DNA of 26,026 bases from Candidatus Margulisiibacteriota bacterium. Its GTDB lineage: Bacteria; Margulisbacteria; WOR-1; O2-12-FULL-45-9; XYB2-FULL-48-7. Shown piece by piece: positions 14,830-17,316 of the stretch. The DNA is taken from NCBI GenBank assembly GCA_028717325.1, contig JAQUOB010000001.1, forward strand, positions 1 to 26,026, given 5' to 3'. How positions within the stretch are numbered: the first letter of the stretch is position 1; each line of letters begins with the position of its first letter. A program made the position numbers and the translations under genes. The notes beneath the pieces are model-generated. The model searched no databases, was not told where the DNA came from, and saw only the letters and a list, made by a program, of their open reading frames with translations.

Positions 14830-17316
14830 CTAAAAAAGACTTGGCTGATCGCTGCTTTCGGGTCCTTTGATCCGTGTCGAACCAGATTTAAATCGTGTTT
14901 TCTTGGTTTTACCCAGATCGTTCTCGACCATTTCCAAAGTATTATATATATCTTTTGACCTTTTCACAACCTCTTCCGGCAAGCCGGCCAGTTTGGCGAC
15001 TTGAATGCCATAAGAGCGGTCAGCCGGCCCGTCGGCGATCTTATGCAGGAACGTTATTTTATCGCCCTCTTCTTTGACGGTAACGTTTATATTTTTCATG
15101 CCCGGATGCTTATCGGCCAGCTGGGTGATCTCGTGATAGTGAGTGGCAAATAATGTTTTGGCCTTGAGTTTAGTGTGAATATATTCGGCGACCGCTGCTG
15201 CGATCGACATGCCGTCGAAAGTCGCCGTGCCCCTACCGATCTCATCCAATATTATTAAACTATTTTCGGTCGCGTTGTTAAGAATATTGGCCGTTTCGAT
15301 CATTTCGACCATGAACGTCGATTGGCCGGAATAGATATCGTCCATGGCGCCGATCCGGGTGAAGATCCGGTCGATCAGGCAAAGCTCGGCCGATTTGGCC
15401 GGCACGAACGAGCCGATCTGCGCCATCAGGCAGATCAACGCCGCTTGCCTCATATAGGTTGATTTGCCGCCCATATTCGGCCCGGTGATCAGCAGGAATG
15501 TTTGCTTATCATCTAATTCAACGTCATTAGGCACGAACTGGAATTCTCCCAGTGTTTTCTCAACGACCGGATGTCTTCCATCCTTAATTCGTAATTCGCC
15601 ATTCGTAATTCGTAATTTTGGTTGGCAATAATGATTTTCCACCGCCACTTCAGCCAAAGAAAGCAAAACGTCGGTTTGGGCGATCGTTGCGGCCGCGGCT
15701 TGGAGTTGTTTGGTGTAGGCAGATACTTGCTGGCGGACGTCGCAGAGGATCTGGTATTCCAGCTCTTTCATCCGCTCATCGGCATTGAGGATCAGCGATT
15801 CTTTCTCCTTAAGTTCGGGGGTGATGAATCGTTCGGCATTGACCAGCGTCTGTTTCCTAATGTAATCCGGGGGGACCTGATCGGCGTTCGAATTCGTCAC
15901 CTCGATGAAATAACCGAAAACTCGGGTAAAGCCGACCTTGAGCGACTTGATCCCGGTCCGCTTCCTCTCCGACGCTTCCAGTTCGGCTATCCACTGCCGG
16001 CCGCCGCCGGTTGCTTTTTTAAGCTCATCCAGTTCAGCGTTAAAGCCCGATTTGATCAGCCCGCCTTCTTTGATGACGAACGGAGGGTCTTCAACGATCG
16101 CTTTGGAGATTAACTCAATTATTTCCTGATTAAAGGATCCTGCGACTGAACGTCGCGGCTCCTTTAATAATTCCGACTTGCTATCATCAAGCAGCGTCAC
16201 TATTCTTGGCAATTGTCTTAATGATTCCTTCAACGAGACCAAATCCCTGGCATTAGCTGATTGCGTCGCGACTTTGCCGGTTAATCTTTCGATATCGAAG
16301 ACCTTCTTTAGCCCTTCCCCCAGCTCCGAGCGAAGCAGGCCGTTGTTGAATAACTCATCTACCGCATCCAATCTTTGCTCAATATTTGGAACCGATAGTA
16401 ACGGCTGCAGCAGCCACTGCTTCAACAACCGACTGCCCATCGAGGTTTTTGTCCGGTCCAAAACCCAGATCAAACTGCCCCGGAACGATTTGTCGCGGGC
16501 GGTTTGTGTTAGTTCAAGATTTCTTCTCGTTACCGCATCAATGAACATATAGTCCTCGGTGTGGTAGGGCTTTAGCGCGTTAATATGGCCGAGGGTTGTC
16601 TTTTGGGTCTCTTTAAGGTAATCAAGAATGGCCGCCGCTGCGCCCAGAGCGACTTCTTTGCCTGTCAGACCGAACGACTCCAGCGATTTGACTTTAAGAT
16701 GTTCCAAAAGTTTTTCGATCGCTGTTTCGTTATCGTAAATATCCTTGAATGAGGAACCTGCGACTAAACGTCGCGGTTCCTCGGGAAAAACGTCCGACAC
16801 AATTATTTCTGCCGGCATGATCCTTTTTATTTCATCGGTTAATTTCTCAAGGGAGTCAAAGTCAGTCAGTTTAAATTCGCCGGTTGAAGCATCAACGAAC
16901 GCCATGCCGAAGCTGCCCTTTTCATGATTAACAGCCATGAGGTAATTATTCGTCTTGTCAGACAGCATGGAAGATTCGAGCACGGTCCCCGGGGTAACGA
17001 TCCTGATAATGTCGCGCTTAACCAGCCCTTTAGCGAGTTTAGGGTCTTCAACCTGCTCGCAAATGGCGACCTTATAGCCCTTTTCGATCAGCTTGGCGAT
17101 GTAGCCCTCTGCCGCGTGGTAAGGAATGCCGCACATCGGCATCCGGTTGTCATCCTTGCCTCGGCCGGTCAGCGTCAGGTCAAGCTCGCGCGACGCCAGC
17201 TCGGCGTCGTCGTAGAACATCTCGTAAAAATCGCCAAGGCGAAAAAAGAGGATAGCGTCCTTGTGGAGGGCTTTGATCTCCTGATATTGCCGGGCCATCG
17301 GGGTTAAGTCAGCCAT
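14830..17316 (-). CDS. mutS: DNA mismatch repair protein MutS
   Basis: FFRLGDFYEMF mismatch-binding motif, PMCGIPYH, Walker A TGPNMGGKST, QSTFMVEM, LDEIGRGT, FATHYHE, SYGIQVAKLAGLP. Confidence 0.99.
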   Translation of the reverse strand: MADLTPMARQYQEIKALHKDAILFFRLGDFYEMFYDDAELASRELDLTLTGRGKDDNRMPMCGIPYHAAEGYIAKLIEKGYKVAICEQVEDPKLAKGLVKRDIIRIVTPGTVLESSMLSDKTNNYLMAVNHEKGSFGMAFVDASTGEFKLTDFDSLEKLTDEIKRIMPAEIIVSDVFPEEPRRLVAGSSFKDIYDNETAIEKLLEHLKVKSLESFGLTGKEVALGAAAAILDYLKETQKTTLGHINALKPYHTEDYMFIDAVTRRNLELTQTARDKSFRGSLIWVLDRTKTSMGSRLLKQWLLQPLLSVPNIEQRLDAVDELFNNGLLRSELGEGLKKVFDIERLTGKVATQSANARDLVSLKESLRQLPRIVTLLDDSKSELLKEPRRSVAGSFNQEIIELISKAIVEDPPFVIKEGGLIKSGFNAELDELKKATGGGRQWIAELEASERKRTGIKSLKVGFTRVFGYFIEVTNSNADQVPPDYIRKQTLVNAERFITPELKEKESLILNADERMKELEYQILCDVRQQVSAYTKQLQAAAATIAQTDVLLSLAEVAVENHYCQPKLRITNGELRIKDGRHPVVEKTLGEFQFVPNDVELDDKQTFLLITGPNMGGKSTYMRQAALICLMAQIGSFVPAKSAELCLIDRIFTRIGAMDDIYSGQSTFMVEMIETANILNNATENSLIILDEIGRGTATFDGMSIAAAVAEYIHTKLKAKTLFATHYHEITQLADKHPGMKNINVTVKEEGDKITFLHKIADGPADRSYGIQVAKLAGLPEEVVKRSKDIYNTLEMVENDLGKTKKTRFKSGSTRIKGPESSDQPSLF
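15584..15618. repeat. Five GTAATTC-type heptamers inside mutS
   Basis: TTAATTC-GTAATTC-GCCATTC-GTAATTC-GTAATTT. Encodes KLRITNGELRIK just before DGRHP. Confidence 0.75.
16129..16168 (-). repeat. REP-like hairpin, copy 3, in frame within mutS
   Basis: Coding strand ATTAAAGGAGCCGCG-AC-GTTCA-GT-CGCAGGATCCTTTAAT, translated as LKEPRRSVAGSFN. Confidence 0.9.
16751..16782 (-). repeat. REP-like hairpin, copy 4, in frame within mutS
   Basis: Coding strand GAGGAACCGCG-AC-GTTTA-GT-CGCAGGTTCCTC, translated as EEPRRLVAGSS. Confidence 0.9.

Follow-up and report, generated by a model that had tools for sequence, protein, structure and literature searches.

A REP-like hairpin family translated in frame within mutS of Candidatus Saganbacteria, near a Y1 transposase gene

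Described palindromic repeats and the hairpins in mutS

The window analysed here is a 26-kb contig (26,026 nt in full) of a metagenome-assembled genome (MAG) from a landfill metagenome (1.41 Mb in 224 contigs, 84% complete), the host being Candidatus Saganbacteria, also known as candidate division WOR-1, as placed by its MutS relatives. The mutS gene in this window contains two copies of a short hairpin repeat which are both read in frame, and further copies are found around a gene for a Y1 (HUH) transposase in the same contig. In the following, G000 is the window's own genome, other G numbers denote genomes, L numbers denote loci or ortholog sequences, and C numbers denote contigs of G000.

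Several described systems come close to these repeats. Insertion sequences of the IS200/IS605 type use a Y1 HUH transposase, which recognises subterminal hairpins in single-stranded DNA. The repetitive extragenic palindromic (REP) sequences and REPINs associated with REP-associated tyrosine transposases (RAYTs) are reportedly imperfect palindromes of 20-40 nt, which form inverted doublets and flank a vertically inherited Y1 gene. To our knowledge, the movement of REP-type hairpins was never directly seen. Saganbacteria are a sister lineage of Cyanobacteria, in which small dispersed repeats (SDRs) are said to occur as tiny hairpins with compensatory changes and nested insertions, together with arrays of heptameric short tandemly repeated repetitive (STRR) sequences; we know of no transposase linked to the SDRs.

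Palindromes inside genes were also described. Of the REPs characterised by GTAG/CGTC, most lie downstream of a gene and many form inverted dimers, but copies were also found inside genes of several species, where some are translated in frame; the intragenic copies are in excess in replication and repair genes (uvrA, uvrB, uvrD, polA, recBCD, dnaE, ligase), and certain genes were struck twice at different sites (PMC3733652; Di Nocera, De Gregorio, Rocco 2013, BMC Genomics 14:522). Thus, in-frame translated REPs are already known, repair genes included, and mutS is absent from the main text of that paper. A further example are the Rickettsia palindromic elements (RPEs; Ogata et al. 2000, as related in PMC10969869 and PMC3733652), palindromes of about 100-150 bp which lie in frame in unrelated housekeeping genes of Rickettsia and encode surface peptides without destroying the protein; in these secondary accounts they have no associated transposase.

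The Saganbacteria hairpins resemble the GTAG/CGTC REPs (PMC3733652) in being short palindromes located for the most part downstream of genes, with inverted dimers and in-frame translated copies, two of them in a single repair gene. They differ by the lack of a conserved GTAG/CGTC foot and by one bulged base that is kept. In addition, PMC3733652 treats the copies as insertions, whereas here there is no length gain and the same two codon positions were struck across genera. The first-pass annotation of the window compared the repeats to RPEs, as dispersed hairpins that are read through in frame, and the about 40 copies that we found in G000 agree with this comparison. However, judged by the cited summaries of RPEs, the 30-nt unit, the free-living candidate class and the link to a Y1 gene make the family RPE-like in its working and not a member of the RPEs. 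The Saganbacteria share with the SDR and STRR sequences the small hairpins, the compensatory changes, the nested copies and the heptamer arrays, but the sequences differ. Our literature search found no paper on palindromic repeats in Saganbacteria. What sets the present case apart is the class-wide occurrence of an untagged, bulged hairpin, an IS200-type Y1 gene held near mutS, the reoccupation of the same two positions by this and by unrelated repeats, and the absence of a net length gain.

The mutS gene (14830-17316, minus strand) is an uninterrupted open reading frame (ORF) of 828 aa which carries both hairpin-encoded peptides. Its product is matched by all five Pfam domains from MutS_I to MutS_V and by the E. 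coli MutS structure 7ai6 (E 8e-210), and the invariant residues of the MutS alignment are retained. The hairpins at site 1 (16750-16783, core 16757-16776) and site 2 (16132-16165, core 16139-16158) are exact plus-strand matches to the pattern CCTGCGACNNAACGTCGCGG, and the latter folds as a bulged stem-loop. With up to three mismatches to this pattern, the window has 7 matches compared to 0.02 expected from shuffles. When read on the gene strand, the copy at site 1 gives E-EPRRLVAGS-S at residues 179-189 (EPRRLVAGS, 180-188) and the copy at site 2 gives K-EPRRSVAGS-F at residues 385-395 (EPRRSVAGS, 386-394). Orientation and reading frame of the two copies are identical, in line with the initial description of two co-oriented, in-frame hairpins in an otherwise intact MutS. 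Tryptic peptides predicted from these segments are LVAGSSFK and SVAGSFNQEIIELISK.

The idea that two hits in a mismatch-repair gene could affect the mutation rate found no support: MutS looks intact, and in G000 an uninterrupted frame of 579 aa also matches the MutL family model (PF01119). The mutS-borne peptides are probably neutral passengers of a MutS that would still be functional.

Repeats in a MAG can raise the suspicion of an artefact of assembly or binning, in which repeat-induced chimeric joins put the hairpins into mutS. The fragmentation into 224 contigs is compatible with such joins, and unitigs indeed break at the site 1 hairpin. However, the frame is open and both flanks align with orthologs; an independent unitig of the source run covers the 16139 copy with zero differences, the 16757 copy is crossed gap-free by contigs that come from other samples and represent related strains, and many independent MAGs, including those of other genera, carry hairpins at the same MutS positions. 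We consider the probability of an artefact, a concern raised already in the first-pass annotation, to be negligible.

To place the two sites in the protein we used an AlphaFold2 model based on a 41-sequence alignment (pLDDT 84.6, pTM 0.82). In the model, site 1 falls in a loop of low confidence (pLDDT 59) that connects strands 170-174 and 187-190 of connector domain II. Site 2 belongs to core domain III, where it runs from the last part of helix 382-391 through the turn 392-394 into the first part of helix 395-406, and this helix-turn-helix of conserved length is modelled with a pLDDT of 87-88. According to the model, the places in MutS that tolerate a copy would be a flexible loop in connector domain II and a helix-turn-helix in core domain III. 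The earlier description of both sites as poorly conserved linkers thus fits site 1 and has to be revised for site 2.

A third variable spot of MutS lies between domains III and V (15584-15625, residues about 567-575) and is encoded by tandem heptamer arrays. The same residues are encoded by heptamers in L003, L005, L006, L007, L010, L103 and L104, with a unit that varies by genus (AATTACG, GTCACGG, ACGCGTA, CTCCGAA, AAATCCT). Codon-shuffled controls for this spot contained no such arrays.

Occupancy of the two mutS sites in related genomes

For comparison we used MutS from 27 genomes of the order, 5 genomes from other orders, 4 metagenome contigs and 17 outgroups, and the tree was built without sites 1 and 2. 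A scan of metagenomes for closer mutS relatives gave nothing above 78% identity and, the Logan data being short unitigs, no strain-level empty allele was obtained.

At site 1, the same hairpin in the same frame is present in L002, L004, L007, L011 and L102, and in a different frame (GNREVYSQVS) in L103 and L160. Other orthologs have inverted doublets (L110, L115, L159), decayed copies (L009, L108) or a half copy (L008) at this site, and still others contain unrelated hairpins (L003, L005, L114) or a heptamer array (L113). In L176, which belongs to another order, site 1 is occupied by a family copy whose loop contains another, nested hairpin. At site 2, the hairpin is found in the window's clade, with compensatory variants, and also, as separate occurrences, in L107, L110 and L115. 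In several close relatives its place is taken by an unrelated hairpin, ATTCCCCACACTTAAGTGTGGGGAAT, which we call family B to distinguish it from the family of the window (family A). Site 2 of L104 is a chimera consisting of the outer stem of family A and the loop of family B, and in L004 a second hairpin is nested in the loop of the family hairpin.

On the tree, L102 with a hairpin-free site 2 and L107 with a hairpin are sisters (97% support), and the families A and B alternate within the window's clade. Because of these two observations, site 2 needs at least three to four independent events. Both places in MutS have been struck more than once, by separate events in different genera.

The same loops hold, in other genera, translated hairpins of at least two further families. 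The hairpin ATTCCCCACACTTAAGTGTGGGGAAT is translated as SPHLSVGN, and GGCGGTCTAAAGACCGCC as GGLKTA. Loci with hairpins of other families are L005, L006, L008 and L010 (site 2), L005 and L114 (site 1), and L132, L134 and L136 (the loop of a YgiQ-type protein, see below).

The presence of the same peptide at site 1 in five genera could mean that selection acts on EPRRxVAGS as a protein motif of MutS, and that the hairpin DNA is incidental. However, in the orthologs examined the peptide was always accompanied by the hairpin DNA; it had been proposed from the start to look for the peptide without the hairpin, and no such ortholog was found. Further, changes on both sides of the stem rewrite the peptide (PRRSV, PRGLL, PPRFIG, PRRLA, PRRSAS), and the same DNA is translated in different frames in the MutS of L103 and L160 as well as in the Lpd-type, LarC and YgiQ-type genes. 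The peptide is therefore not the conserved thing. Since the majority of the family copies are in addition intergenic, we rejected selection at the level of the peptide, which we regard as highly improbable.

A second possibility is that each site goes back to a single ancient insertion, which was inherited vertically and kept because the hairpin serves mutS. As an RNA or DNA structure it might tune expression, mRNA stability or local supercoiling. In line with this, site 1 holds the family or its remnants in both taxonomic families of the order, the pairing is maintained through two-sided changes, and a 28-nt sequence is extremely conserved in an otherwise variable loop: the site 1 hairpin is identical at 28 of 28 nt in L004, L007 and L102, as compared with 0-0.4% of the other 28-nt windows of the gene in those pairs (exact-string presence, with the other windows as background). 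On the other hand, site 2 is empty in the other orders, in three of four of which site 1 is hairpin-free and of native length, and L107 has a hairpin at site 2 which its sister L102 lacks. Frames and copy numbers vary by genus, and copies decay in G009. The stem variants in mutS are moreover the same sub-families that are found between genes, which fits sampling from the family and not site-specific selection. Taken together, we consider a function of the hairpin for mutS quite unlikely as the reason for its presence.

The case of G009 is instructive in this respect. This genome has one family copy and no Y1 match, and both of its MutS hairpins are degraded, which suggests that the perfect copies elsewhere are kept by an active process rather than by MutS function. 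In G007 six copies are left, three of them inside mutS and the Lpd-type gene.

The hairpin family and the Y1 transposase locus

The repeat unit has a length of approximately 30 nt and contains one bulged base (GGAAACC-T-GCGAC-TRAAC-GTCGC-GGTTTCC; family consensus nnGGAAACCTGCGACTGAACGTCGCGGTTnCCTn). GTAG is absent, and CGTC is confined to the stem of one sub-family. The sub-families differ by inner stems with changes on both sides (GCGAC/GTCGC, GCGAA/TTCGC, GAGAC/GTCTC, GCGGC/GCCGC, GCGAG/CTCGC). Among 56 distinct copies from this and related genomes, pairing was found in 90.8% of the cells as compared with 37-47% for a slid partner column, and 10 of 14 stem pairs were changed on both sides; pairing of the inner stem was a selection criterion for these copies, but the nine outer pairs were unselected and covary as well. 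Complementarity of the G000 copies (16 nt on each side) extends for approximately 10 nt beyond the core, with 53-62% Watson-Crick pairs at positions 6-10 outside the CC/GG core. It is at chance by position 12, and the bases are locus-specific.

In G000, 14 pairs of copies form inverted doublets in AT-rich spacers, with 18-30 nt between the partners, and the remainder are single. Most copies are located in AT-rich spacers adjoining gene ends, with about 9-10 within ORFs. A typical example is the intergenic inverted doublet downstream of alaS (422-493, cores 429-448 on the plus strand and 467-486 on the minus strand). The statement of the first-pass annotation that REPs are normally extragenic thus applies to most copies in G000, but translated intragenic REPs had already been described (PMC3733652). 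The family core was detected in 29 of 31 genomes of the order with 1-102 copies each (0-1 for a reversed-pattern control), and in 47 of 65 genomes of the class Saganbacteria, but in only 1 of the 81 genomes of the phylum outside this class. The REP-like hairpin family is old and class-wide in Saganbacteria. An Rfam scan of positions 15500-23000 yielded no relevant family.

Roughly a quarter of the family in G000 is translated. The unit corresponds to 10 codons, and five of six frames are free of stops when the loop is TGAAC, and four of six when it is TAAAC; thus, a copy that lands where the gene tolerates it is read through as part of the frame. Besides the two copies in mutS, intragenic copies with an open frame in genes of known function, the flanks of which align to orthologs, were found in the genes for an Lpd-type flavoprotein (read as GNRDVQSRA), a YgiQ-type radical SAM protein and LarC, the last two containing a whole doublet each. 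The N-terminal tail of a PMT-type glycosyltransferase is probably also encoded by a family copy (C29 8180-8213, L020), and possibly the N-terminal part of the signal peptide of a metallophosphoesterase (C121 664-697, L018), the start codon being unsettled in both cases. The expectation that other in-frame copies exist in this genome is therefore borne out by the Lpd-type, YgiQ-type, LarC and glycosyltransferase genes.

The loop in the Lpd-type protein (L145-L158; in G000 C64 1309-1342) is encoded by one of two alternatives, a bulge-less family hairpin or five heptamer units. The distribution of the two forms ignores taxonomy, as G013 is unlike G005, G010 and G014 of the same genus. Tandem arrays with a period of 7 are specifically enriched in G000 (47 arrays, versus 0-8 for the periods 5, 6 and 8-11; examples are C215 2378-2408 and C170 2742-2774). 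Some of these arrays consist of the unit CCCCAGT, known from cyanobacteria as the STRR1 heptamer. The distance to the nearest family hairpin exceeds 60 nt for every one of the 47 arrays in G000, and we rejected a link between arrays and hairpins.

The Y1 gene of the window (21073-21519, minus strand, 148 aa) was identified by Pfam Y1_Tnp (PF01797, 1.3e-21) and is single-copy, as it is the sole Y1_Tnp match in G000. The HVH motif at residues 50-52 and the YINNQ motif at residues 114-118 are intact, and the protein passes the NCBIfam IS200 model NF033573 with 66.1 bits (cut-off 55). The 3' end of the gene contains a hairpin (21097-21130, core 21104-21123, plus strand), which is located in the last 30 codons and translated as RKPRSSFAGFL in the same frame as the mutS copies, as was noticed at first inspection. 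In G003 and G011, the Y1 gene likewise has a hairpin within its 3' end. The neighbouring gene in the window encodes a protein of 364 aa with a NucS-type nuclease domain (21524-22618, minus strand; Pfam NucS_C at 9e-9). Upstream of this nuclease-Y1 pair there are two hairpins (22638-22720, cores 22645-22664 and 22694-22713, minus strand), which are inverted with respect to the 21104 copy. We considered a tnpB partner of the Y1 gene and rejected it, since the adjoining gene encodes a NucS-domain nuclease and not TnpB. Inverted family hairpins flank the Y1 gene in G027, G003, G030 and G001 (tightly) and in G000 (with the nuclease gene intervening). Because the hairpins directly flank the Y1 gene in relatives, the NucS-type gene looks like a later arrival or cargo.

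In the window, the Y1 gene is located 3.8 kb upstream of mutS. The distance is about 0.1 kb in G003, G016, G019 and G023, and in the range of 1.5-6 kb in G010, G013, G005, G006 and G000, and this linkage spans both families of the order. Hairpins are dense in this region: the window harbours 7 copies, whereas the genome-wide density would predict 0.72 (P about 1e-5), a figure that is weakened by the possibility that the window was chosen for its repeats. Four copies are present within 2 kb adjoining mutS in G010, and at least 5 of the 14 copies of G016 are on the mutS contig. Family hairpins were also observed immediately before the mutS start codon, between the Y1 gene and mutS, in L005, L008 and L107.

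The locus shares with the REP/REPIN-RAYT systems the dispersed imperfect palindromes, mostly as extragenic inverted doublets, and a single Y1 gene with inverted flanking copies. It differs from them in that the Y1 protein scores as IS200-type and below the RAYT cut-off, that GTAG is lacking and that about a quarter of the copies are translated. As in IS200/IS605, the Y1 protein has the HUH and catalytic Tyr motifs and passes the IS200 model. In contrast to these elements, the Y1 gene is present once per genome, in a neighbourhood conserved across two families, tnpB is missing, the flanking hairpins are inverted and not co-oriented, and the dispersed copies are bare hairpins instead of two-ended miniature elements. 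The layout is that of a REP-associated transposase locus, although two features that define this family, the GTAG foot and a score above the RAYT cut-off, are missing.

Lengths of the occupied loops and the origin of the copies

The lengths of the occupied segments were measured between fixed anchors, each hairpin corresponding to 10 codons. At MutS site 2, hairpin-free segments have 52-55 aa (mostly 52) in the 17 outgroups and 50-51 aa in most hairpin-free Saganbacteria, and their sequence is native, since it aligns with the outgroup pattern. With a hairpin, this segment has 54 aa in the window and 52-53 aa in L107 and L110, a net change of +1 to +3 aa; the window gene is 2-3 aa longer than native. 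At site 1, the native length of 62 aa (three other orders and a Clostridia outgroup) compares with 54 aa in the window, a net change of -8 aa. In the Lpd-type gene, the hairpin-free alleles have 60 aa, the segment being encoded by five heptamer units, and those with a hairpin have 55 aa (-5 aa). The little net length gain suspected for mutS was thus confirmed, and it extends to a third locus. The copies in the YgiQ-type gene, in LarC and of family B in MutS look like plain additions of 8-24 aa.

Based on these data, we regard it as probable, though far from certain, that REP copies linked to the Y1 gene inserted at tolerant positions of mutS, close to that gene, and were trimmed later, with a neutral outcome for MutS. 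The Y1 enzyme would be the candidate for moving the hairpins as single-stranded DNA, and the proximity of mutS to the Y1 gene would raise the rate at which mutS is struck. Copies in tolerant parts of the gene would be translated, here as EPRRxVAGS. Deletions beside the palindrome could then trim native codons, so that the gene would be no longer than before, and the resulting peptides would be neutral in a working MutS. Palindrome-stimulated deletion is established for long palindromes.

Several observations, in addition to the reservation about the local density of copies, weigh against this explanation. The Y1 protein misses the curated RAYT model NF047646 (52.1 bits, cut-off 80), and G002, G007, G008 and G012, which are 90-96% complete, have no Pfam Y1 match in spite of 6-47 hairpin copies each. 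The transposition event itself was not directly seen. Hairpin alleles are not longer at three loci, which a plain insertion would not predict, so that the added step of deletion is needed. Finally, close relatives differ in which of two unrelated hairpin families occupies site 2, and this exchange between A and B could mean that one hairpin replaced the other, and not that a new insertion took place.

These points lead to the main alternative, in which a hairpin overwrites a stretch of native codons in a single step, through template switching or short-patch conversion with a further copy of the family as the source. Priming would occur by microhomology with the outer stem (AAGGAAC ... GGTTCC), and an occupied site could be overwritten by another hairpin or a heptamer array. 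Accordingly, site 2 in the hairpin-free L103 reads AAGGAAC...GGGCTTCC, which is like the outer stem. One-step overwriting is also compatible with net changes of -8, +2/3 and -5 aa at three loci despite hairpins of 10 codons, with three phylogenetically separate gains at site 2 that all end +1 to +3 aa from native, with the swap of A and B inside one clade and the A/B chimera in L104, with the two alternative cassettes of the Lpd-type gene, which are distributed regardless of taxonomy, and with the identity of 28 of 28 nt of the site 1 hairpin across families. However, the YgiQ-type, LarC and family B MutS copies behave like plain additions, and a junction between donor and recipient was not observed in any case. 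Further, an ordinary insertion could have lost flanking codons later through palindrome-stimulated deletion, and a length constraint on the helix-turn-helix at site 2 could select for outcomes of equal length. We therefore consider overwriting in one step possible, but clearly the less probable course of events.

The first-pass annotation had suggested replacement or conversion instead of simple insertion. The length pattern fits this suggestion, and it fits insertion followed by deletion of flanking codons equally. The lengths thus do not decide between insertion with flank deletion and one-step overwriting, and the mechanism is unproven.

If overwriting is taken further, it is tempting to speculate that variable loops such as MutS sites 1 and 2, a third one near 566-580, and the loops in the Lpd-type and YgiQ-type proteins may be cassette sites, where repeats are written over codons by templated copying instead of cut-and-paste insertion. 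The units exchanged at such sites may be family A, other hairpin families and tandem heptamer arrays; the sequence of a loop would be exchanged time after time, with a loop length that stays roughly native. We regard this idea as rather doubtful at present.

The hairpins in Saganbacteria are important for several reasons. The copies are located in conserved frames, and orthologs therefore supply anchors at the level of residues on both sides. One bacterial class offers gains, frame changes, doublets, nesting, decay and repeat swaps at the same few sites, and this series of events makes the question of insertion versus overwriting testable by comparison. With our results, mutS joins the repair genes that bear translated repeats. 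Last but not least, if cassette sites exist, they would represent a previously undescribed route by which selfish or repair-derived repeats remodel proteins, and this route might be common to the small dispersed repeats and STRR heptamers of cyanobacteria.

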